Part shown: piece by piece, positions 3,442 through 35,493 of the stretch
Layout: every line of letters begins with the position of its first letter
How positions within the stretch are numbered: position 1 is the stretch's first letter
IMG/VR virus record: IMGVR_UViG_2529293246_000006
Reading direction: 5' to 3' (one strand)
DNA length: 35,493 nucleotides
DNA from: a virus
Taxonomy: Duplodnaviria > Heunggongvirae > Uroviricota > Caudoviricetes
Position numbers and translations under genes: made by a program
Notes under the pieces: generated by a model
Told to the model about the DNA's origin: nothing
The model's database searches: none
The model's input: the letters and a program-made list of their open reading frames with translations, nothing else

Positions 3442-4608
3442 TTAAACTCCTTTGACGACGTCGGCGTTGACCTGCGGGACCCCGATTTCAGCAGCCAGAT
3501 TCATGGCGGCTATCACCAGGTTACTGACGGCCAGCGGATACAGCAGGCTGACCATGCTTTTACGGCTACTACCCAGATTGCTCAGACGGGCGCGGATGGC
3601 TTCCACTGCGCTGGCGTCCATGATGTCGGCCAGCTGCTTACCGGCACGTTGCAGTTTGAACGTCAGAAACTCTTCGAGGCTGTTGTCCAGCGGCAGCAAT
3701 TCAACCAACTCGCAGCGCTGGACGACCTCACGGACTTCCATGTTGCGTTCGGACAGTTTGTCTGCCAGTTCAGGCTGGCCAATCAGCACGATGGACAGCA
3801 GTTTTTTGAAGCCGGACTCCAGTTCGAAGAAGCGTTTAAGGTGCTTCAGCGTCGGAATGGGAAGGCTGTGGGCCTCCTCAATCACCAGAACGTGGCTGAA
3901 ACCCGCCTGACTGCTGTCCTTCAGGACTCGGTGCAACTGGCGGAAGCGGGCGTCCTGGCTGCGTTTGATACTCTCCAGCGGCGCGATGGTGCTGATGATG
4001 GCCTCGGCGATAGCTGCCGCCTTCAGGGTTTTGCCCTTCACGTCGTTGTCTTCCATGGCGATGATGTATGGCTCGATTACAATCACCGGCGCGTTCTCGC
4101 GGTTGACGCGTTCAATCAGGTCGCGGCGCAGCGTGGATTTACCCGCACCGGACTCGCCGATAACCGCCAGAAAGCCACCATGGCGGGCGGTCTGGAACAG
4201 CGCCTCACGCACGTAGCGGATATCCGGCGTGGTGAACACATCGTCCGCGCCCTGCATGGCTTCATCGGCGAACGGATCACGGAAAAGGCCAAACGCTTTT
4301 TTGGTTGCTGGAAATAACACCTGCTTTTTGAGTAACATGTTCTCTTCCTCACTGAGGTTGGTTTTATCGGTAGTACCCGCTGTACGGGGCGTGACAGCGC
4401 CCTGTGCAGCATCAAAACTTTTCACTGTATCAATCCCCTTACTTTCCAGATACAACGCCAGACGCTGGCGTACCTCTTCGGGGCTGGTGCGTGGCCACTC
4501 GTTATGGTTCACAATCTGGGCCAGCGTGGCCTCGGAAACGGCGACGGCTCTTGCCACCACCGCCTGCGGGATGCGGGCCTCTTTCAGTTGTTGCTTCAGT
4601 ACCAGCAT
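3442..4608 (-). CDS. transposition ATPase (MuB-like AAA+ target DNA activator)
   Basis: 388 aa. Walker A GESGAGKST and Walker B VLVIEEAH. Directly downstream of the transposase. Strong GAGGAGG Shine-Dalgarno before the ATG at 4608. Confidence 0.85.
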   Translation of the reverse strand: MLVLKQQLKEARIPQAVVARAVAVSEATLAQIVNHNEWPRTSPEEVRQRLALYLESKGIDTVKSFDAAQGAVTPRTAGTTDKTNLSEEENMLLKKQVLFPATKKAFGLFRDPFADEAMQGADDVFTTPDIRYVREALFQTARHGGFLAVIGESGAGKSTLRRDLIERVNRENAPVIVIEPYIIAMEDNDVKGKTLKAAAIAEAIISTIAPLESIKRSQDARFRQLHRVLKDSSQAGFSHVLVIEEAHSLPIPTLKHLKRFFELESGFKKLLSIVLIGQPELADKLSERNMEVREVVQRCELVELLPLDNSLEEFLTFKLQRAGKQLADIMDASAVEAIRARLSNLGSSRKSMVSLLYPLAVSNLVIAAMNLAAEIGVPQVNADVVKGV

Positions 4609-4618
4609 GCCTTCCTCC

Positions 4619-6388
4619 TCAGTTACCGTTAACGATGCTGATAACGCTGTTGCGGGCCGGAGTGGTCAGGGTAACCATCACCTCATCCAGCGCGGCTTCA
4701 GGTACGCCATCCGGGTACTGCGCCGTTAACTGGCGGTAATGTTCCGGCGTCCAGATATGGCCGTTAGCGCCAAACTTCTCGCGCAGGGCTTTCGCCGCCT
4801 CCACATGGGTCAGCGGACGCTGCTCAATACGCGGCCCGCGCACGTCTGAAGCCTGACCGCGCTTCGGCATATAGGCCGGAAGCGTGGTGTCGTCGATATG
4901 TTTGTACGGGTCAAGTCGCCCGCCGAACGGCAGCGCCTTCGCCTTGCGTGCAGCAGCTGCATCGGTGGCGTTATCGGTGCCCGTAACCAGCTCTTCGATT
5001 TCTTTTGCCGCCGTCTGCGCCGGGGTCTCCGGCAGGGCTTTGTAGTTTTCGCCAAATACCGCCGCGTTTTCGGCAAAGCCGAACTCGTTCTTTCTGACCT
5101 CCTCGACCAGGAAGAACGTCTCGTGACCGTCCTCACCGGTCAGCACCACCTGCGCCACATCGCTGCGCCACGGGTTACGGGTAATCATCAGTTTTTCGCC
5201 GACCAGTACGCCCGGTACCGTCGAAACGTCAAACTCATTGCCCCGGAACGAGACGCGCAGTTTTGGTGTGACCTTACGGAGTTCCGGTGCGGCCACCGCC
5301 AGTTCGCGGCAAACCTCAACGGATGGCGCTTTTTTCAGCTGGTCAGCAGTAATCTTCAGCCAGATATCCGTGCGGGTTTTACCGTGGCGGCTGTGGACCG
5401 CCGTGGCGTTAAAGTGGCTGCGCCATTTCACCGCCAGTGCGTTCAGTTCGTCCAGGCTATGAACCGGCTGGAATTTGAGACCCGGCTCCAGTTTACGTTC
5501 GATAATGTCACGGGCCTTTTCCACCTGCCCGGTGGCGCGGGCGTTATGCGGCTTGTGCGCTATCAGATTGATGCCCAGCGAGCGGCACATGTTTTTCGTC
5601 ATGCCAGCGGTGTTCGCCGAACCGGGATCAAGGTAGAGTATTTTCGGCACGCCGTGCAGCACGTCCGCGCCGCCGCGCTCCTGCATGGCGTTGATAAGCA
5701 CAGAACAGAGGTTCTCACCAGATTCCGCACCCATCACGTACTCAACGTAAATCCAGCCGCTGGTATGGTCGGTAATCTCGTAACTCCACACGCGGTCACT
5801 GGCGATGCGGGCGATGTTGGCAGGCTTGTTCTTGTAGAACTTCGAGCTGTCCATCACCTGCAACCCTTTATGGCCGTTGCTCAGGTAGTAAAGCGTACAA
5901 AGTGAGGCATCAATCTCCCAGACGTGATTGGGATGCAGGCTGGCCATCTCGGACGACGGGGCCGGTGCGTCAAGCTGTTCCGGGTGCAGACCATAGTTCC
6001 GCAGGGCGCGGCTGATGGTATCCTCGGACAGCGGGAAAAACTCGCCTGTGGCCTCGTCCGTTCTGCCAGCAGTGATAAAGCCGTTTGACCGCAGGGTCTC
6101 CACCGCATCCGCGATGGAATACAGGCGCTTACCGTTCTTACGGGTGGCCTCGCGCAGCGTGGCAGATATCAGCGCGGCTTCGTCGCGGCTCAGGGCACTG
6201 CGCCCGGCATCGGCGCGTTTTTTACGTTTGTCAGTCACTGATACCTCCTTCAGCTTGCGCAGCAGGGTGGCGCGGGAAATGCCCAGTTCGGCGCAGGCGG
6301 CATCATATATCGCACCACGCTTACCATGCCCCGCGTCACGTGCCGCGCGGGCAACATAAACCAGTCGTTCAGTCAGGGCGGCACTCAT
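4619..6388 (-). CDS. DDE transposase (Mu/BcepMu-type, integrase-core fold)
   Basis: 589 aa. N-terminal HTH region, candidate catalytic Asp residues in HVWEIDAS and YLDPGSAN, followed by a conserved Glu region. Sits just upstream of the ATPase as in transposable phages. Confidence 0.85.
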   Translation of the reverse strand: MSAALTERLVYVARAARDAGHGKRGAIYDAACAELGISRATLLRKLKEVSVTDKRKKRADAGRSALSRDEAALISATLREATRKNGKRLYSIADAVETLRSNGFITAGRTDEATGEFFPLSEDTISRALRNYGLHPEQLDAPAPSSEMASLHPNHVWEIDASLCTLYYLSNGHKGLQVMDSSKFYKNKPANIARIASDRVWSYEITDHTSGWIYVEYVMGAESGENLCSVLINAMQERGGADVLHGVPKILYLDPGSANTAGMTKNMCRSLGINLIAHKPHNARATGQVEKARDIIERKLEPGLKFQPVHSLDELNALAVKWRSHFNATAVHSRHGKTRTDIWLKITADQLKKAPSVEVCRELAVAAPELRKVTPKLRVSFRGNEFDVSTVPGVLVGEKLMITRNPWRSDVAQVVLTGEDGHETFFLVEEVRKNEFGFAENAAVFGENYKALPETPAQTAAKEIEELVTGTDNATDAAAARKAKALPFGGRLDPYKHIDDTTLPAYMPKRGQASDVRGPRIEQRPLTHVEAAKALREKFGANGHIWTPEHYRQLTAQYPDGVPEAALDEVMVTLTTPARNSVISIVNGN

Positions 6389-7615: not shown

Positions 7616-7836
7616 GACGCCTCCTTGAGGATGCCGGGGGTAACTTCTTTGCCTATTGCGACCGAAAGGTCTCGCAAAATCCGATAAGTCAAACGACCGC
7701 GTGGAAGTTCGCTTTTGCCTGCCCAGCGGCTGACAGCCTGGGTGACTGTTCGTGGCTCATAGCCCGCGTTAAGCGCGAACTGGCGCAAGCTACTGCCTCT
7801 TTCAACCAGCCGTGCCCGAACTTGTTGTTTGTTCAT
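7612..7836 (-). CDS. ner: Ner-like DNA-binding protein
   Basis: 74 aa from the ATG at 7836. ...LRQFALNAGYEPRTVTQAVSR... resembles the Ner/Nlp family. First gene of the minus-strand early operon, divergent from the repressor. Confidence 0.7.
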   Translation of the reverse strand: MNKQQVRARLVERGSSLRQFALNAGYEPRTVTQAVSRWAGKSELPRGRLTYRILRDLSVAIGKEVTPGILKEAS

Positions 7837-7924
7837 ATGCACCGTGTTCCTGTTGGGTTATGATGTACTCTATTGGGTCTATTGTACGCACCCGAACGGG
7901 TATGTCAAATTGAGATATGTTCAA
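7837..7924. promoter_or_regulatory. divergent ner/repressor intergenic control region (putative operators and promoters)
   Basis: 88-bp spacer between divergent start codons. Contains TGTTGGGTTA and TATTGGGTCT direct repeats and a CCCGAACGGG inverted repeat. Function inferred from position only. Confidence 0.4.
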
Positions 7925-8335
7925 ATGAGTATAAAAGAGAGATTGCGCGAAGCGATGGATGCTAAGAGTCTGACAATTAAGGCATTGTCAGAGTTGTCAA
8001 AAATTCCATATCGCTCACTTCAAAACTATCTGCGTGGAGAGAGAGAACCTAATGCAGAGGCTCTTGTTGCGCTAAGCACCCATTTGAACATATCAATAGA
8101 TTGGCTACTTACTGGTAAAGGGGAAGCTGTTGGGGTAGAGAAAGCACAGCCAGCTAATCAGGAGCAGCATTTCAACCAGTCTGATCTGAAGTTATTGGAG
8201 CTGCTCAACCAACTGGAGCCAGAGGTGCGAAAAGATTTGCTGCGAGGCGCTGAGGAAAAACAGCGAATGATTGATATGGAAAAACAGCTTAAGGAGCTGT
8301 CCGCAGCGTTCGAAAGATTAAAAAATACGGGTTAA
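7925..8335 (+). CDS. XRE-family HTH repressor (putative prophage maintenance repressor)
   Basis: ORF 7829..8335 trimmed to the ATG at 7925 (MSIKERLREAMDAKSLTIKALSELSKIPYRSLQNYL...). Classic XRE HTH with a C-terminal helical domain. Divergent from ner. Confidence 0.7.
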   Translation: MSIKERLREAMDAKSLTIKALSELSKIPYRSLQNYLRGEREPNAEALVALSTHLNISIDWLLTGKGEAVGVEKAQPANQEQHFNQSDLKLLELLNQLEPEVRKDLLRGAEEKQRMIDMEKQLKELSAAFERLKNTG

Positions 8336-8370
8336 TCTGTTCCTATTAAGAACATTAGAGGTATAAGGAC

Positions 8371-8904
8371 ATGACTATGCGCAAATTATTTTTACCGTTG
8401 ATATTTGTTTTATCTGGGTGTGGAGATAATACCGATCCTGCTGATACGTCCACCACAGCTAAGGAGCACGCGGTTTTTAGCGTTGAAACAGATAATCCGG
8501 TTGTAAATCGCGAATTACCGTTTATTCGCCAACAACTCCCCGGCCTGGATAAGTACGCGGACAGTTTTGAAAAAGTCGAAGTATCCGAGGATAGCGAACG
8601 TCCGGTGACAACGGTGCAGTTTCATATTAAAGACGAAAATAATATTCCAAGTGACTACATAGCCTCTGGTCATAATTGTTATTTGTTCATATCAAATAAT
8701 GCCCACGAAGTGAAAATATCTAAATCAGCATGTCAGGCTGTTTTTTTCGATAAAACGGATGTTCCTGGTGGAGACCTGACCGTGAAACTTGATAAGGAAA
8801 AAGTTCCTATGACAGATGATGGTAAGACCCCGCGAGCAGGTTGTTTGAAAGCTTATTCACCAGAGCCAGATAATGATTATTGGACTTGTCCAAGGCAGGA
8901 TTAA
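8371..8904 (+). CDS. lipoprotein of unknown function (moron; candidate superinfection-exclusion protein)
   Basis: 177 aa. N-terminus MTMRKLFLPLIFVLSGCGDN is a lipoprotein signal peptide with an LSGC lipobox. The gene and flanks are visibly AT-richer than neighbouring phage genes. Confidence 0.65.
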   Translation: MTMRKLFLPLIFVLSGCGDNTDPADTSTTAKEHAVFSVETDNPVVNRELPFIRQQLPGLDKYADSFEKVEVSEDSERPVTTVQFHIKDENNIPSDYIASGHNCYLFISNNAHEVKISKSACQAVFFDKTDVPGGDLTVKLDKEKVPMTDDGKTPRAGCLKAYSPEPDNDYWTCPRQD

Positions 8905-8911
8905 ATGTTTA

Positions 8912-8934
8912 GGTGGTGCTGCAGATGCACCACC
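8912..8934. terminator. hairpin between convergent lipoprotein and dam genes (putative bidirectional terminator)
   Basis: GGTGGTGC (8912-8919) / GCACCACC (8927-8934) stem with a 7-nt loop, flanked by A/T-rich runs. Lies between the stop at 8904 (+) and the stop at 8952 (-). Confidence 0.45.
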
Positions 8935-8951
8935 ACCTTTAACTACCTCTT

Positions 8952-9722
8952 TCAAAAATTACAAATTACCAGCTCTTTCTTCGGGCTGGGTTTGCCTGTT
9001 ACCTTAAGGTTGTAGCTGATATCAACCGACTGCATGTTCAGACCGTTGAATACCTGCCGCATTTCCGGGATATCGTTCACTGATATAATCATCTTCCCTT
9101 TGATCCTTCGCGCTAAATCTGCCATGTGATCATAGTTTTCCAGCCCGAACTCCACACCATAGCCTTCCGTTCCCCAGTACGGTGGGTCACAGTAGAACAG
9201 CGTATGCGGGCGATCATATCGCTCTATGCACTGGTGCCAGTCCAGATGCTCTATCAGCGTTCTCGACAGGCGCAGGTGTGCCATCGACAGTTCTTCCTCA
9301 ATACGCAGCAAATTGAAGCGCGGCGCACTGGTTGTAGAGGTACCGAATGTGTGATCGGCGACCTTGCCGCCAAATGCCTGTTTCTGCAGGTAGTAGAACC
9401 GGGCCGCCCGCTGAATGTCGGTGAGCGTTTCTTCCGGCGTATCCTGCAACCATTTGTAAATCTGACGGCTGACCAGCGCCCATTTGAACTGGCGAATAAA
9501 TTCTTCCAGATGATGCTTGACCACCCGATAGAGGTTCACCAGTTCCCCGTTGATATCGTTAATGACTTCGGTCTTGCTGGGAGTCTTTAGGAAATAGAGC
9601 GCAGCTGCCCCGCAGAACGGCTCCACATAGCAGGTATGGGCCGGAAACAATGGTAAAATATGCTTCGCCAGACGACGTTTACCGCCAATCCATGGGACGA
9701 TGGGTAAAGATTGTTCTTTCAT
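8952..9722 (-). CDS. dam: DNA adenine methyltransferase (Dam-like, N6-adenine D12 class)
   Basis: ORF 8952..9746 trimmed to the ATG at 9722 (MKEQSLPIVPWIGGKRRL...). FCGAA (motif I) and the DPPY catalytic motif (YCDPPYWGTEGYG). Opposite strand to its neighbours. Confidence 0.85.
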   Translation of the reverse strand: MKEQSLPIVPWIGGKRRLAKHILPLFPAHTCYVEPFCGAAALYFLKTPSKTEVINDINGELVNLYRVVKHHLEEFIRQFKWALVSRQIYKWLQDTPEETLTDIQRAARFYYLQKQAFGGKVADHTFGTSTTSAPRFNLLRIEEELSMAHLRLSRTLIEHLDWHQCIERYDRPHTLFYCDPPYWGTEGYGVEFGLENYDHMADLARRIKGKMIISVNDIPEMRQVFNGLNMQSVDISYNLKVTGKPSPKKELVICNF

Positions 9723-9769
9723 TATCCGTAAGCCTTTTGCAATCAATGAAAATATGGCAGGCTAGTCTG

Positions 9770-12029: not shown

Positions 12030-12333
12030 TATCGCCCGCGTGCGCCGGGAATCCCTGCGCTGGAGTCTGCTGGTTGCTCTGAACAAAACCCGCCCGTACA
12101 CCGCCAGCGAGACGCTGCTGCTGGACGTGTCCCGCGCCATCTACCCGGACACCACTCCGCTGGAGCTGCGCCGTGAGCTGGATTATCTGTCCGACCGCAA
12201 GATGGTTGATCTGGAGAAAAAACCCTCCGGCGACTGGTTTGCCGACCTGACCCGCCTCGGCGTTGACCTGGTGGAATATACCGTGGAATGCGGCCCCGGT
12301 ATCGCCCGCCCGGAAAAGTACTGGAGTGAATGA
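12022..12333 (+). CDS. hypothetical protein (103 aa)
   Basis: ATG at 12022 preceded by an AGGAGG Shine-Dalgarno; overlaps the upstream stop by 8 nt. Confidence 0.5.
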   Translation: MVDIARVRRESLRWSLLVALNKTRPYTASETLLLDVSRAIYPDTTPLELRRELDYLSDRKMVDLEKKPSGDWFADLTRLGVDLVEYTVECGPGIARPEKYWSE

Positions 12334-12878
12334 TGGCCAGACGCAGCACGATAGAAAAGCTGCCGGAAGACGTGCGTCGCTGGCTTGAGCGGGCGCTGAC
12401 TGAATCCGGCTTCAGCGGGTATAACGAGCTGGAGTCCCTGCTGCGTGAGCAGGGTTATGTCATCAGCAAATCGGCTATCCATCGCTATGGCCAGAAGATT
12501 GAGCGCCGCTATGGCGCTATCCGTGCAGCCACTGAAGCGGCCCGGATGCTGACCGAAGGTGCGGCTGACGATCAGGATGCACGTTCGGAGGCGGTGATCG
12601 CCCTGATTCAGACCGAGCTGTTCGAGAGCATCGTCCAGCTGCAGGAAGCGGAAGAAGGCGAAGTCGACCCCAAAGAGCGCGTGGCGCTGTTGTCGAAGGT
12701 GGCAAAGAACGTGGCCACGCTGTCCCGCGCTTCCGTCAACCTCAAGAAGTTCCAGTCTGAAGTCCGGGCCAGAGCGCAGCAGGCGGCCAGCAACGCCGAG
12801 AAAATTGCCCGTAAGGGTGGACTGTCAACCGATGCGGTACAGGCGCTGCGTCGTGAAATTCTGGGGATTGCCTCATGA
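12330..12878 (+). CDS. putative terminase small subunit (Mu gp27-like, DUF3486)
   Basis: 182 aa, directly upstream of and translationally coupled to the large terminase. Family assignment from memory. Confidence 0.55.
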   Translation: MMARRSTIEKLPEDVRRWLERALTESGFSGYNELESLLREQGYVISKSAIHRYGQKIERRYGAIRAATEAARMLTEGAADDQDARSEAVIALIQTELFESIVQLQEAEEGEVDPKERVALLSKVAKNVATLSRASVNLKKFQSEVRARAQQAASNAEKIARKGGLSTDAVQALRREILGIAS

Positions 12879-31096: not shown

Positions 31097-32071
31097 ATGG
31101 CAAACCTACCTGAAACCCCGCAGTGGGAAGACGGCATCTACCAGATTGAGGTCTCCGACCCCGTACTGGGCGGGCCTGACGGAATTTCTAACCGTCAGGC
31201 TAAACAGCTGGCCAGCCGTACTTCATACCTGAAACAACAGGTTGAAAAAGGCGGTTCAGATCTCGCGAAACACATCGCAGCGGCCGACCCGCATACCCAG
31301 TACGCGACGAAGGCCAGCCCAACATTCACGGGTACGCCAACGGCCCCCACGCCTGCAGCTAATGACAATAGCAAAAAGCTGGTGACGACAGAATTTGTGG
31401 CGAGGGCGATTGCTGCGCTTGCAGGTACAGCCCCAGAAACACTGGATACGCTGAAAGAGCTGGCTGATGCCCTTGGCAACGATCCAAACTTTGCGACCAC
31501 AGTGCTGAACAAGCTGGCGGAGAAACTGGCCAAAGACCAGAACGGTGCGGATATTCCCGATAAGGCAGCCTTTCTTCAAAACCTTCGTTTGGGAGCAGGT
31601 GCTCCAGCTATCGGTATTCCGTTCTTCTGGCCTTCAGCTGCGATGCCTAATACCGTCATAGATGAATGGGCAGATATGGTGTTTCTGAAATTCAACGGTG
31701 CGACATTTTCGGCAACAACTTATCCGAAGCTAGCTAAGGTGATCCCCAGTCTGACGCTAACCGAGGCTCGGGGTGAGTTTCCGCGCATTTGGGATGATGG
31801 GCGTGGCGTGGATAACGGGCGTGCATTGTTGAGTATACAGGGTGATGCCATCAGAAATATCACCGGTAATGTCGGCGTTTATTCAGATGGTTTATTAACT
31901 TATGCTTCTGGTGTTTTTTCTCTTGGGTCTTCATCATCGAATAAAAATAACCCAATAGCAGGGAGCGGGGCAAATGCTTACGCCACTTTTGATGCTTCAA
32001 AAGTCGTACCAACAGCTTCTGAAAACCGTCCTCGTAACATCGCTTTTAACTTCCTTGTGAGAGCAAAGTAA
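31097..32071 (+). CDS. tail fibre protein (constant N-terminal part 31097-31583 plus invertible variable C-terminal part)
   Basis: 324 aa. The left inversion site (31571-31596) lies inside the gene. The C-terminal part is AT-rich compared with the N-terminal part. Confidence 0.75.
   Translation: MANLPETPQWEDGIYQIEVSDPVLGGPDGISNRQAKQLASRTSYLKQQVEKGGSDLAKHIAAADPHTQYATKASPTFTGTPTAPTPAANDNSKKLVTTEFVARAIAALAGTAPETLDTLKELADALGNDPNFATTVLNKLAEKLAKDQNGADIPDKAAFLQNLRLGAGAPAIGIPFFWPSAAMPNTVIDEWADMVFLKFNGATFSATTYPKLAKVIPSLTLTEARGEFPRIWDDGRGVDNGRALLSIQGDAIRNITGNVGVYSDGLLTYASGVFSLGSSSSNKNNPIAGSGANAYATFDASKVVPTASENRPRNIAFNFLVRAK
31571..31596. repeat. left inversion site (gix/hix-like), core TT at 31584-31585
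   Basis: TTTCTTCAAAACC-TT-CGTTTGGGAGC is an inverted copy of the site at 33431-33456 and resembles the Hin hixL site TTCTTGAAAACCAAGGTTTTTGATAA as I recall it. Confidence 0.7.
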
Positions 32072-32682
32072 TGAAACCTATTTTTAATGAAAATGGACTG
32101 GCAACTGAGGCGGGCGATATTCGCTGCTTTTACTATGACTCTTTTACTTATGAATATACGGGCTGGTCTGACGAACATATTAACGTTGGTGTAAGCATGC
32201 CGGGGAATTCGACCGATATTGATCCGGGTGATGAGGTGTCAGGCATGGTCGCTGTATTTAACTGTGATGCATGGAATCAACAGGAAGACCACCGCGGCGA
32301 AACCGTATTTTCTACCGCTGATAGTAGCCATGTAACCGTTGATTACATCGGTGAAATCAGAGACGGCTTCACAACAGCAGCTCCTGCCACACCTTACGAT
32401 AAGTGGGATGGGGAGAAGTGGATAACGGATAGTGAAGCGCAGCACACAGCCAACATCGCCGCTGCTGAAGTAGACAAACAGTCCAAAATTGACCAGGCCA
32501 ATGAATACATCAACAGTAAGCAGTGGCCCGGCAAAGCCGCTTTGGGCCGCCTAAGTGACGCGGAGAAAGAGCAATATAATTTGTGGCTGGATTATCTCGA
32601 TGCGCTGGAAGCTGTAGACACCTCCAGTGCTCCAGATATTAACTGGCCTACTCAGCCTGATAATCGGGAGCAGGCTGGGTAA
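32071..32682 (+). CDS. tail fibre assembly chaperone (Mu U / P2 G-like)
   Basis: 203 aa; ATGA overlap with the fibre gene. Lies inside the invertible segment and is AT-rich. Confidence 0.65.
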   Translation: MKPIFNENGLATEAGDIRCFYYDSFTYEYTGWSDEHINVGVSMPGNSTDIDPGDEVSGMVAVFNCDAWNQQEDHRGETVFSTADSSHVTVDYIGEIRDGFTTAAPATPYDKWDGEKWITDSEAQHTANIAAAEVDKQSKIDQANEYINSKQWPGKAALGRLSDAEKEQYNLWLDYLDALEAVDTSSAPDINWPTQPDNREQAG

Positions 32683-32839
32683 ATGCGGCGCCATCGTATA
32701 AATACCCCGACTCAACGTCATCAGGACAATTAACCCAAACCAACGAGGGGTGGAAACGCCCCTCCGGATCTACATCTACGGTTTCTTCAACGCGAAAGTT
32801 TTCTTTGCCTTCAATTTTTTTAATTCTTGCCCATGTCAT
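32648..32839 (-). CDS. small putative tail-fibre assembly protein for the alternative fibre (U'-like)
   Basis: 63 aa, convergent with and overlapping the 3' end of the plus-strand assembly gene; follows the alternative fibre cassette on the minus strand. Confidence 0.4.
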   Translation of the reverse strand: MTWARIKKIEGKENFRVEETVDVDPEGRFHPSLVWVNCPDDVESGYLYDGAAFTQPAPDYQAE

Positions 32840-32843
32840 TTAA

Positions 32844-33442
32844 TCACCACTCAATAATCACAATACCATTTTTACCGGAGCCGGATTTATTACTACTGTT
32901 AGCAGCAATCCCACCACCACCGCCCCCATAACCAGGCGCATCCAGACCCATCCCTGTAGATCCTCGGCCTCCGGGGCCGCCACCGTTGCCGCCGCAATTT
33001 GCCGAGTTGGCTGAACCGTCATCCCCCCAACCCAACCCCTGATTAACGTCTCCGCCAAAACCGGCTCCCGACGAACCACCGGATGTTGATGTGCCGCCAT
33101 ACCCATACTGACCACCAGTCGCGGAGAGATAAGAACCAAAAGAAGATGACCCACCGGATGCGCCATTACCTGTAGTTACGCCAGCACCAGCAGAGCCAAC
33201 GGTTACCGTAACGCTTGAAACGTCTGTGAGATCGAGAAGCAATTTCGAATATCCGCCACCGCCGCCACCGCCCCCGCGCTTTGTTGTATCGGTAGTCGAC
33301 CCGCCAGACGCTCCACCACCAATTACTGTCACCTGGCATTTTCGCCCTTGTTGGAGTGCCTCAGGAACGTTCCAGTTAGATACTCCAGGGGTGTTGAAAA
33401 CAACTATGTTTTGCAGGCCAAAGGCCGATGCTCCTAAACCAA
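32844..33442 (-). CDS. alternative tail-fibre C-terminal variable domain (Sv'-like), promoterless cassette, Gly-rich
   Basis: Minus-strand ORF reads ...FSKNLGLGASAFGLQNIV... across the right inversion site, in frame with the constant part (FLQNL) after inversion. Contains long Gly runs (GGGGGGGG, GGGGGG). Confidence 0.55.
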
Positions 33443-33456
33443 GGTTTTTGGAAAAG
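33431..33456. repeat. right inversion site (gix/hix-like), core AA at 33441-33442
   Basis: CTCCTAAACC-AA-GGTTTTTGGAAAAG is the inverted partner of the site at 31571-31596; 61 bp upstream of the invertase start. Confidence 0.7.
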
Positions 33457-33516: not shown

Positions 33517-34098
33517 ATGGCCGTCATTGGTTATATCCGCGTATCAACAATCGACCAGAACAGCGATTTACAGCGTAATGCGCTCACAAGCGCAAACTGT
33601 GACCGCATTTTTGAAGACCGTATGAGCGGAAAAGTTGCCAGCCGCCCCGGTCTGAAACGCGCTTTAAAGTGCGTTAATAGCGGAGACACCCTGGTCGTGT
33701 GGAAACTGGACAGGCTGGGGCGCAGCGTTAAGAACCTGATCGCACTGATATCAGAATTACATGAACGCGGTGCCCACTTCCGCTCTTTAACAGACAGTAT
33801 TGATACCAGCACTGCCATGGGGCGCTTCTTTTTCCATGTGATGTCAGCACTGGCGGAGATGGAACGTGAGCTGATCGTCGAACGAACACTGGCCGGGTTG
33901 GCAGCAGCCAGAGCACAGGGACGCATAGGTGGAAGGCCCAATGCATTAAAACCGCATGAGCGGGAACAGATTGGGAGACTATTGGCCAGGGGACATACTC
34001 GCCAGCAACTGGCCATAATCTACGGAGTGGGATTATCGACGCTCTATCGGTATTTTCCGGTAGATAGTCAGAGGAAGGATGAAGCGGTAGGATTGTAA
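33517..34098 (+). CDS. gin: site-specific serine DNA invertase (Gin/Hin/Pin/Cin family)
   Basis: 193 aa. MAVIGYIRVSTIDQNSDLQRNAL...GDTLVVWKLDRLGRS...SLTDSIDTS..GRFFFHVMSALAEMERELIVERT closely matches the Gin/Hin sequences I recall, including the catalytic Ser in VSTIDQ. GAGGAGGA Shine-Dalgarno. Confidence 0.9.
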   Translation: MAVIGYIRVSTIDQNSDLQRNALTSANCDRIFEDRMSGKVASRPGLKRALKCVNSGDTLVVWKLDRLGRSVKNLIALISELHERGAHFRSLTDSIDTSTAMGRFFFHVMSALAEMERELIVERTLAGLAAARAQGRIGGRPNALKPHEREQIGRLLARGHTRQQLAIIYGVGLSTLYRYFPVDSQRKDEAVGL

Positions 34099-34132
34099 TT
34101 CTTTTGCAAATATTGAAACGCCGCAGCGATGC

Positions 34133-34176
34133 CATTTATCTCACGGAAATGGGCGCATTTATCGCGCGGCGCATCA
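34133..34176. repeat. prophage right terminus with two transposase-binding-like repeats; phage DNA ends ...CA at 34176
   Basis: CATTTATC at 34133-34140 and 34156-34163. Read inward from the end, the terminus is TGATGCGCCGCGCGATAAATGCG..., resembling the Mu R end TGAAGCGGCGCACGAAAAACGCG...CGATAAATGCG as I recall it. Confidence 0.65.
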
Positions 34177-35493
34177 TTTCATGGTTACGCCGGTGATTAA
34201 ACCAATCACCGCCACTACCATCAGGTAATAGGCAGGCATCATCAGATTCTGCGAGCTTTCGACCAGCCAGGCCGCCAGTGTTGGCGTCAGACCGGCAACC
34301 AGCACCGAAATATTAAATGCCGCCGCCAGCGCGCTGTAACGGATATGCGTCGGGAACATCGCTGGCAAGGTAGAAGCCATAACGCCCGTAAAGCAGTTAA
34401 GGATCACCGCCAGCATCAGTAACCCGGCAAAAATCAGGCCGATGACGTTACTGTTAATCAGAATAAACGCCGGGATCGCCAACACAAACAGGGCAACACT
34501 ACCAAGTAGCACAAACGGACGACGGCCAAAACGGTCACTCAGCAAGCCCATCACCGGCTGGACAAACAGCATACCGATCATAATGGCGATAATAATCAGC
34601 ACCCCGTGGTCTTCGGAGTAATGCAGGTTATGCGACAAATAACTCGGCATATAGGTCAGCAACATGTAGTAAGTCACGTTGGTGGCAATTACCAGACCAA
34701 TACATGTCAACAGGCTGCGCCAGTGTTTGGTGGCAATCTCTTTAAACGAGACTTTCGGGCCATCCTGCAAACCTTCGCGGTCGCCCTGTTCCAGTTTATC
34801 GACATGCTGCTGGAACGCCGGAGTTTCTTCCAGCGCATGGCGCAGGTAAAGCCCGATAATCCCTAACGGCAGAGCAATAAAGAACGGAATACGCCAGCCC
34901 CAGTCGAGGAAGTTCGCTTCGCCGACAATGGTCGAAATTAACACCACTACGCCAGCACCCAGCACAAACCCGGCAATAGAACCAAAGTCCAGCCAGCTGC
35001 CCATAAAGCCACGTTTACGGTCAGGGGAGTATTCCGCAACAAATATCGACGCCCCGGTATATTCACCGCCGACCGAGAAACCTTGTGCCATCTTACAGAT
35101 CAACAGCAGAATCGGTGCCCAAATACCAATCGTGTCGTAGGACGGTATTAAGCCAATACAGAACGTACTGATCGACATAATCACAATAGTGATAGCGAGG
35201 ATCTTCTGGCGACCATATTTATCGCCCAACATACCAAAGAAGAGTCCGCCAAGCGGTCGAATCAGAAAGGGAACGGAGAACGTGGCAAGTGCAGCAACCA
35301 TCTGCACGCTGGGGTCAGCCCCCGGGAAAAAAACTTTACCTAATGCGTAAGCAACAAAACCATAAACACCAAAATCAAACCATTCCATTGCATTACCCAG
35401 TGATGCTGCGGTAATGGCTTTACGCAGTTTACCGTCATCAATAATGGTGACATCACGAAGGGTAATCGGTTTTACTTTTTTCCTTTTCAGCAT
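34174..35493 (-). CDS. proP: proline/glycine-betaine MFS transporter ProP, 3'-truncated by the prophage insertion (439 of ~500 codons)
   Basis: Protein starts MLKRKKVKPITLRDVTIIDDGKLRKAITAASLGNAMEWFDFGVYGFVAYALGKVFFPG..., matching E. coli ProP from memory. The frame ends ...GVTMK and then a TGA formed by the phage terminal TGA at 34174-34176. The C-terminal domain is missing. Confidence 0.8.
   Translation of the reverse strand: MLKRKKVKPITLRDVTIIDDGKLRKAITAASLGNAMEWFDFGVYGFVAYALGKVFFPGADPSVQMVAALATFSVPFLIRPLGGLFFGMLGDKYGRQKILAITIVIMSISTFCIGLIPSYDTIGIWAPILLLICKMAQGFSVGGEYTGASIFVAEYSPDRKRGFMGSWLDFGSIAGFVLGAGVVVLISTIVGEANFLDWGWRIPFFIALPLGIIGLYLRHALEETPAFQQHVDKLEQGDREGLQDGPKVSFKEIATKHWRSLLTCIGLVIATNVTYYMLLTYMPSYLSHNLHYSEDHGVLIIIAIMIGMLFVQPVMGLLSDRFGRRPFVLLGSVALFVLAIPAFILINSNVIGLIFAGLLMLAVILNCFTGVMASTLPAMFPTHIRYSALAAAFNISVLVAGLTPTLAAWLVESSQNLMMPAYYLMVVAVIGLITGVTMK

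Follow-up and report, generated by a model that had tools for sequence, protein, structure and literature searches.

Phage Mu, named for the insertional inactivation of host genes, transposes to random sites, has TG...CA ends with paired subterminal transposase sites, and carries Mor/C-type activators and a Gin-controlled invertible tail-fiber segment. The prophage described here appears to share all of these features; the two differ in the length of the target duplication (5 bp for Mu versus 6 bp), in the orientation of the early region, and in the sequences of their transposition proteins, which are unrelated to MuA and MuB. Mu cuts its target at positions 5 bases apart, whereas B3 duplicates 6 bp, the footprint of the B3/Tn552-family transposases (PMC8705779), and this published footprint equals the duplication found at the present locus. 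The transposases of the BcepMu type have an rve core and lie near Tn552, and their phages have TG...CA termini (PMC2628397).

The Burkholderia phages BcepMu (Bcepmuvirus) and phiE255 are among the closest known systems, with a transposase identity of 68% and sheath and tube DNA that is ∼75% identical, although nucleotide similarity to both phages is confined to a few late genes. The layout of BcepMu, in which Mor is the leftmost gene and the bottom strand encodes the early genes, is the same, as are its termini, which start with TGA, end with CA, and contain GNGATAWWT repeats at positions ∼12 to 21 and 35 to 44 of both ends. Unlike BcepMu, the prophage has an enterobacterial host, and its right end holds a Gin-type invertase and a candidate invertible tail-fiber segment in place of the acyltransferase gene of BcepMu. 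The transposase of Pseudomonas phage B3 shows 57% identity over its full length, but no DNA match was found between the late region and B3; in contrast to B3, which is a siphovirus, the prophage possesses a module for a contractile tail, with annotated sheath and tube genes in its relatives. Near-identical relatives in GenBank are the Escherichia phages Phi06_2974 B and PhiKM and the Klebsiella phage KP12. KP12 and Phi06_2974 B show 96 to 97% DNA identity over 76 to 92% of the late region, and the transposases of Phi06_2974 B and PhiKM are 99.8% and 93% identical to that of the prophage. All three are separate phage records, none of them tied to proP.

The gene that was hit encodes the osmosensory transporter ProP, for which the solved structure comprises the coiled coil only (PDB 1R48, residues 468 to 497). 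In the current model, the C-terminal domain locks ProP via membrane binding at low osmolality and activates it via coiled-coil dimerization (PMC10710835). As reported in PMC4272814, citing Culham 2000, ProP without its last 26 residues is expressed yet inactive, and variants and orthologues that lack the coiled coil respond only to a larger osmotic upshift. Natural ProP homologues from Cronobacter that are 60 to 70 residues shorter still give some osmoprotection at high osmolality (PMC4272814). The engineered C-terminal deletions (Culham et al. 2000) and the short homologues have lost the coiled coil or C-terminal domain and keep the 12-helix major facilitator superfamily (MFS) core, as does the ProP fragment described below; unlike the engineered deletions, the natural insertion removes residues 440 to 500 entirely while leaving them encoded as a separate 63-aa open reading frame (ORF).

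The stretch of DNA analyzed here (the window, 35,493 nucleotides) covers most of a transposable prophage of 34 kb that split proP in one sequenced E. coli strain. Its source is contig AJWR01000094.1 (NCBI GCA_000264215.1; 208,556 bp), to which it is identical over the compared stretches (the first 8,000 and the last 11,000 nucleotides); the full prophage measures 34,337 bp and occupies positions 61189 to 95525 of this contig. The features of the window are as follows, with their basis in parentheses.

1 to 34176, no strand: prophage body within the window (relatives, contig comparison).
1 to 390, minus strand: Mor-family activator, last gene before the left terminus (relatives).
3442 to 4608, minus strand: AAA+ transposition ATPase of the ExeA/AAA_22 family, putative functional analogue of MuB (Pfam, relatives).
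4619 to 6388, minus strand: DDE (rve-core) transposase of the BcepMu/B3 type, 589 aa, presumed maker of the insertion (homology).
33517 to 34098, plus strand: Gin/Hin-type serine recombinase, 193 aa, last phage gene, convergent with truncated proP (Pfam Resolvase and HTH_7).
34099 to 34176, no strand: noncoding right prophage terminus, 78 bp past the recombinase stop codon, ending ...CA (ends of relatives).
34133 to 34142, minus strand: second transposase-site-like repeat GAGATAAATG, R2 analogue, positions 35 to 44 from the end, 23 bp from the first (conserved position).
34156 to 34164, minus strand: terminal-proximal transposase-site-like repeat CGATAAATG, R1 analogue, positions 13 to 21 inward from the end (conserved position).
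34174 to 34176, minus strand: TGA stop of truncated ProP, from the terminal bases of the prophage (5'-TGAT... terminus) (junction comparison).
34177 to 34182, no strand: right-hand copy of the 6-bp duplication, TTTCAT on the plus strand, equal to codons M438 and K439 in the proP sense (junction comparison).
34177 to 35493, minus strand: proP codons 1 to 439, MFS core including TM12 (identity to intact proP, Pfam, hydropathy).

At the right junction, the proP ORF (34174 to 35493, minus strand) runs through 439 codons to a TGA and terminates ...GLITGVTMK, as read in the first-pass annotation of this DNA. The product of 34177 to 35493 is identical to residues 1 to 439 of the 500-aa ProP (K-12; E. 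coli DH5alpha) and lacks 61 residues, in line with the earlier statement of an intact protein of about 500 aa and the loss of a C-terminal domain of about 60 aa. A megablast search with positions 33900 to 35493 against 5,426 complete E. coli genomes places the beginning of host homology exactly at position 34177 (query base 278), and the host-side proP alignment is 100% identical in many strains. With the breakpoint given as a slash, intact proP reads gccgtctc/tttcatgg and the window reads ...gcggcgcatca/tttcatgg. The right phage end reads ...GCGCGGCGCATCA with 34176 as the last base, so that the final three prophage bases make up the TGA stop (34176 to 34174). The ends of related prophages, which also stop at 34176, agree with this earlier proposal that the phage terminus supplies the stop codon.

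The left junction lies outside the window, whose base 1 belongs to the stop codon of Mor. On the contig, the phage continues for 161 bp past Mor to its left terminus and finishes ...catttatctcaagtctaatca; then follows ATGAAAgagacggcaaatcg, coding for a 63-codon ORF. The junction reads ...TCTAATCA/ATGAAAGAGACGG, and the phage end ...TCTAATCA is here succeeded by ATGAAAGAGACG..., which is the rest of proP, 34,337 bp away from the right junction on the same contig. Downstream are the 63-aa ORF with the Osmo_CC domain, pmrR, pmrB, basR, and eptA in the K-12 order. The expected proP remainder is thus present at the other phage end, and both junctions on one contig establish what had been suspected from the right one, a transposable prophage ending inside proP with removal of the osmosensing C-terminal domain. 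The 3' remainder of proP shows 0 mismatches in 444 nucleotides compared to K-12, and the proP promoter region, behind which ProP(1-439) remains, has a single mismatch in 263 bases. Once the phage and one repeat copy are taken out, the two halves of proP fit together perfectly.

Comparison of both junctions with the intact site gives a target duplication of 6 bp, ATGAAA in the proP sense and TTTCAT on the plus strand at 34177 to 34182, with the left-hand copy located ∼167 bp before base 1 of the window. The 5-bp duplication predicted in the first-pass annotation (TGAAA, or TTTCA on the plus strand) falls short by one base. The same length of 6 bp was found in all six insertions of the BcepMu/B3-type phage family that could be checked.

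proP (window strain): TTTCAT
nrfA: ATTACG
arginine decarboxylase gene: GTAGCT
rlmC: CCATAG
ulaF/yjfY intergenic region: GTTTCG
csgC: GACAAT

For annotation, this means that the "Mu-like" prophages that are frequent in E. coli belong to the BcepMu/B3 type and make 6-bp duplications, and since these are not 5-bp duplications, end finding by the Mu rule is off by one base. It is very probable that a complete 34,337-bp prophage of the BcepMu/B3 lineage transposed into proP with a 6-bp duplication and thereby split the gene. In the proposed mechanism, the rve-core DDE transposase and its AAA+ partner would bind the paired GNGATAAAT sites at each TG...CA terminus as putative recognition sites, the phage ends would be joined to target strands cut with a 6-bp stagger at proP codons 438 and 439, and gap repair would duplicate ATGAAA. 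The structural claim, with which no observation conflicts, is based on one draft assembly (2012 era) of one isolate. The split of proP is real but is an ordinary insertional disruption by a known transposable phage family and of low novelty. Its importance is modest and lies in a clean, fully resolved natural knockout or retuning of a well-studied osmosensor by a transposable phage, with the cut falling precisely where the membrane core of ProP passes into the regulatory tail.

The consequences for ProP follow from the position of this cut. Hydropathy places the last hydrophobic segment of the truncated protein at residues ∼416 to 438, with the break right after it. Pfam assigns Sugar_tr to residues 28 to 438 of the truncated protein, with no Osmo_CC, compared to Sugar_tr at 28 to 448 and Osmo_CC at 454 to 499 in intact ProP. 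The 12-TM MFS core is no longer joined to Osmo_CC in one polypeptide, as it is in the Group A ProP architecture; the locus is still identified as proP by its sequence (100% identity) and synteny, but its product is without the ProP family architecture. Truncated ProP is therefore predicted to keep all 12 transmembrane helices without the domain that locks and activates the transporter in response to osmolality. Because this lock-and-activate domain is lost from ProP(1-439), ProP-mediated uptake of proline and glycine betaine is most likely abolished or badly mistuned. E. coli normally has other osmoprotectant uptake systems, e.g., ProU, and these could mask a growth phenotype.

ProP(1-439) could keep some activity, as short natural homologues do. 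A living transporter, either constitutively unlocked or working only when osmolality is high, which would leave the strain retuned and not ProP null, is a possible outcome, though clearly the less probable one. The truncated protein keeps all of its 12 transmembrane helices and the gene its promoter region, the shorter Cronobacter homologues confer some osmotolerance, orthologues that lack the coiled coil become active at higher osmolality (PMC4272814), and the C-terminal domain is the part that locks the transporter at low osmolality in the model (PMC10710835). Against this outcome stands E. coli ProP itself, which, according to Culham 2000 as cited in PMC4272814, is expressed but inactive when only the last 26 residues are removed. 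In addition, the short natural homologues are only ∼40% identical and have coevolved without the domain, and an end flush with TM12 may destabilize insertion or topology. None of the published constructs consulted ends exactly at K439. Abolished or badly mistuned uptake stays the preferred reading of the truncation.

The severed tail persists as the 63-aa ORF just outside the window, at positions 12151 to 12342 of the retrieved left-junction DNA. Its sequence, MKETANRPLKG...QQHPRIDE, matches the Pfam Osmo_CC osmosensory coiled coil and comprises the entire cytoplasmic C-terminal domain of ProP. The ATG of this ORF is recreated by the 6-bp duplication, which is in frame, and M438 and K439 are consequently present in both fragments. 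The ORF lies directly downstream of the phage Mor operon and in the same direction. No Shine-Dalgarno sequence is visible before the ORF, and the promoter-like matches upstream of it are weak and do not outnumber those in shuffled sequence. Around both junctions, scans for promoters and terminators stayed at the level of shuffled controls. Because of the missing Shine-Dalgarno sequence and the background level of promoter-like matches, the orphan peptide is unlikely to be produced at a useful level. A natural "split ProP," in which the core coexists with a free 63-aa peptide, perhaps through read-through of the Mor operon, and the peptide acts in trans or the core is constitutively unlocked, is highly improbable. 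If both parts were made, dimerization or membrane binding might be the route by which the peptide acts, and the strain would then be a ready-made natural test of the lock-and-dimerize model of osmosensing.

A chimeric contig, joining proP to a prophage from elsewhere by misassembly, is a very improbable source of the junction. The 2012-era draft status gives some reason for caution, as transposable phages are repeats that can confuse assemblers and many other contigs break at the same spot in proP. However, a single contig of 208,556 bp contains both junctions, separated by 34,337 bp. The target is duplicated exactly over 6 bp, the length typical for the family and one that a chimera would not produce, and the proP halves are restored perfectly on removal of the phage and one repeat copy.

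The distribution of the insertion was followed in complete genomes and in contig collections. The uninterrupted proP site is present in 5,409 of the 5,426 complete E. coli genomes, and an insertion at this site is found in none of the 5,426. An exact-protein lookup recovers the identical 439-aa product from 22 contigs, with the phage on AJWR01000094.1 only. These contigs were considered as 22 lysogens, a count that was rejected: the nine others examined carry intact proP that ends at the contig end, continuing with the intact-proP bases (G or GA) or stopping right after codon 439. As far as the data show, the proP insertion is a single-strain event in one assembly. As a separate observation, these nine short contigs, from unrelated samples, end 0 to 2 bases after proP codon 439 with intact-proP sequence. 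The complementary 63-aa C-terminal fragment is recorded from 129 and 36 contigs, compared to 3 to 7 for fragments of neighboring lengths, an excess that may be due in part to M438 being the first ATG that gene callers can use. A common single-nucleotide polymorphism as the cause of the contig breaks at codons 439/440 was rejected, the nearest polymorphism (strain Q65) being 8 nucleotides away.

The identity of the phage follows from its transposition genes. A tblastn search of 50,697 phage records with the transposase matched 69 records, among them BcepMu, phiE255, and B3-like phages, and phage Mu was absent from these 69 matches. The identities to BcepMu and phiE255 (68%) and to B3 (57%) extend over 98 to 100% of the length; the Pfam rve match lies slightly under the cutoff (31.4 versus 32.6 bits). 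The transposase shows no detectable similarity to MuA (BLASTP E = 3.1), and the similarity of the ATPase to MuB is restricted to a Walker A patch (BLASTP E = 0.22). The gene for the AAA+ ATPase adjoins that for the transposase and is accompanied by a Mor-type activator and GemA; Mor (PF08765) and GemA (PF06252) were found in identical relatives. For the related prophage of strain AREA_C483, the annotation lists a Mor activator, gp16/GemA, a DDE transposase, and an ExeA-family ATPase, as well as Mu-type head genes, a contractile tail module (sheath and tube), and a terminal recombinase. Judged by these proteins, the inserted element is a BcepMu/B3-type transposable phage and not Mu because its transposase is 68% and 57% identical to those of BcepMu and B3 without similarity to MuA.

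The subterminal repeats lead to the same assignment. Two copies of CATTTATC at 34133 to 34140 and 34156 to 34163, 23 bp apart from start to start, together with the terminal ...CA, confirm the arrangement described in the first-pass annotation. The 8-mer occurs three times in the 35.5-kb window compared to 0.69 expected occurrences, and two of the three fall in the final 44 bp of the phage. The phage ends read TGATTAGA... and ...GCGCATCA, i.e., TG...CA termini. Read inward, the left end is TGATTAGACTTGAGATAAATGACAGGGGATAAGTGAGATAATTATGG... and the right end is TGATGCGCCGCGCGATAAATGCGCCCATTTCCGTGAGATAAATGGCA...; common to both are TGAT, a (G/C)GATAAATG block at positions 13 to 21, and GTGAGATAA(A/T)T at positions 33 to 43. 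The GNGATAAAT motif occurs at positions 12 to 21 and 35 to 44 of both ends in inverted orientation and in register with BcepMu, whose ends contain GAGATATTT or GCGATATTT and GCGATA(T/A)(T/A)T blocks at the same positions. At the position of the R1 analogue, the left phage end has GAGATAAATG and the BcepMu ends have GAGATATTT and GCGATATTT. From position and conservation, the CATTTATC repeats are most plausibly transposase sites equivalent to R1/R2 in an element of the BcepMu type. The earlier likening of the repeats to MuA-binding R sites does not hold, given that the repeats line up with the BcepMu ends and the transposase has no detectable similarity to MuA. Both termini start with 5'-TGA when read inward, and insertions into coding sequences therefore have a one-in-three chance of ending the upstream fragment without added residues, as in proP.

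That phage Mu or a close relative inserted here, with MuA acting on R1/R2 sites and generating a 5-bp duplication, can be regarded as refuted for practical purposes. The Mu-like genome size, the TG...CA ends, the Mor and GemA homologues, the Mu-like head genes (DUF935 portal and virion morphogenesis protein), and the Gin-like invertase at the right end would all suit Mu. Nevertheless, the duplication is 6 bp in every one of the six insertions, the transposase finds BcepMu, phiE255, and B3-like phages but neither Mu in the phage records nor MuA in a direct comparison, the ATPase resembles MuB in the Walker A patch only, and the early genes are encoded on the strand opposite to the late genes, as in BcepMu. 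Duplication length and absent MuA homology decide against Mu.

Members of the BcepMu/B3-type family sit at many places in E. coli. The right end of related prophages stops aligning at exactly position 34176 in 23 complete genomes, each time beside a different host gene, and at each of 20 left junctions obtained by exact-protein lookups, the phage ends in ...TCTAATCA and unrelated host DNA comes next. In total, more than 25 independent insertions show identical termini and unrelated host flanks; the phage family transposes. In other E. coli strains, it interrupts nrfA, the arginine decarboxylase gene, rlmC, csgC, and further genes. Elsewhere it adjoins csgD, chemotaxis genes, or a fragment of mqo, and it has also inserted into a different prophage, beside a gene for a DnaB-like helicase. 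The index of the contig collection lists the Mor protein of the family in 5,689 blocks. The BcepMu/B3-type family is an active and frequent source of natural insertion mutations in E. coli. Site-specific integration by an integrase using proP as its attachment site, which the serine recombinase gene (33517 to 34098) right at the junction might suggest, is scarcely credible given the same phage ends at more than 25 unrelated loci, the lack of any insertion at the proP site among the 5,426 complete genomes, and the small size (193 aa) and Gin/Hin type of the recombinase, which lies beside a probable invertible tail-fiber segment with hix/gix-like repeats.

Two further regions of the prophage deserve mention. 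Near the recombinase, which is annotated as a "recombinase family protein" in relatives, a 20-nucleotide inverted repeat (AAAACCTTCGTTTGGGAGCA/TGCTCCTAAACCAAGGTTTT) has its arms at 31578 to 31597 and 33429 to 33448. The repeat resembles hix/gix crossover sites. It brackets ∼1.8 kb (31578 to 33448) of the tail-fiber region with a Caudo_TAP assembly gene on the plus strand and an opposed glycine-rich ORF on the minus strand, and the segment looks like a Gin-type invertible host range segment.

Between the early and late operons, window positions 7829 to 9746 form a variable immunity/accessory region. It contains a CI-like helix-turn-helix repressor (136 aa in relatives), a D12-class DNA adenine methyltransferase (8952 to 9746, minus strand), and a 177-aa protein (8371 to 8904, plus strand) with no Pfam match. 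In relatives, this region holds other genes, e.g., those for a nucleoid-associated protein and a DUF2441 protein.
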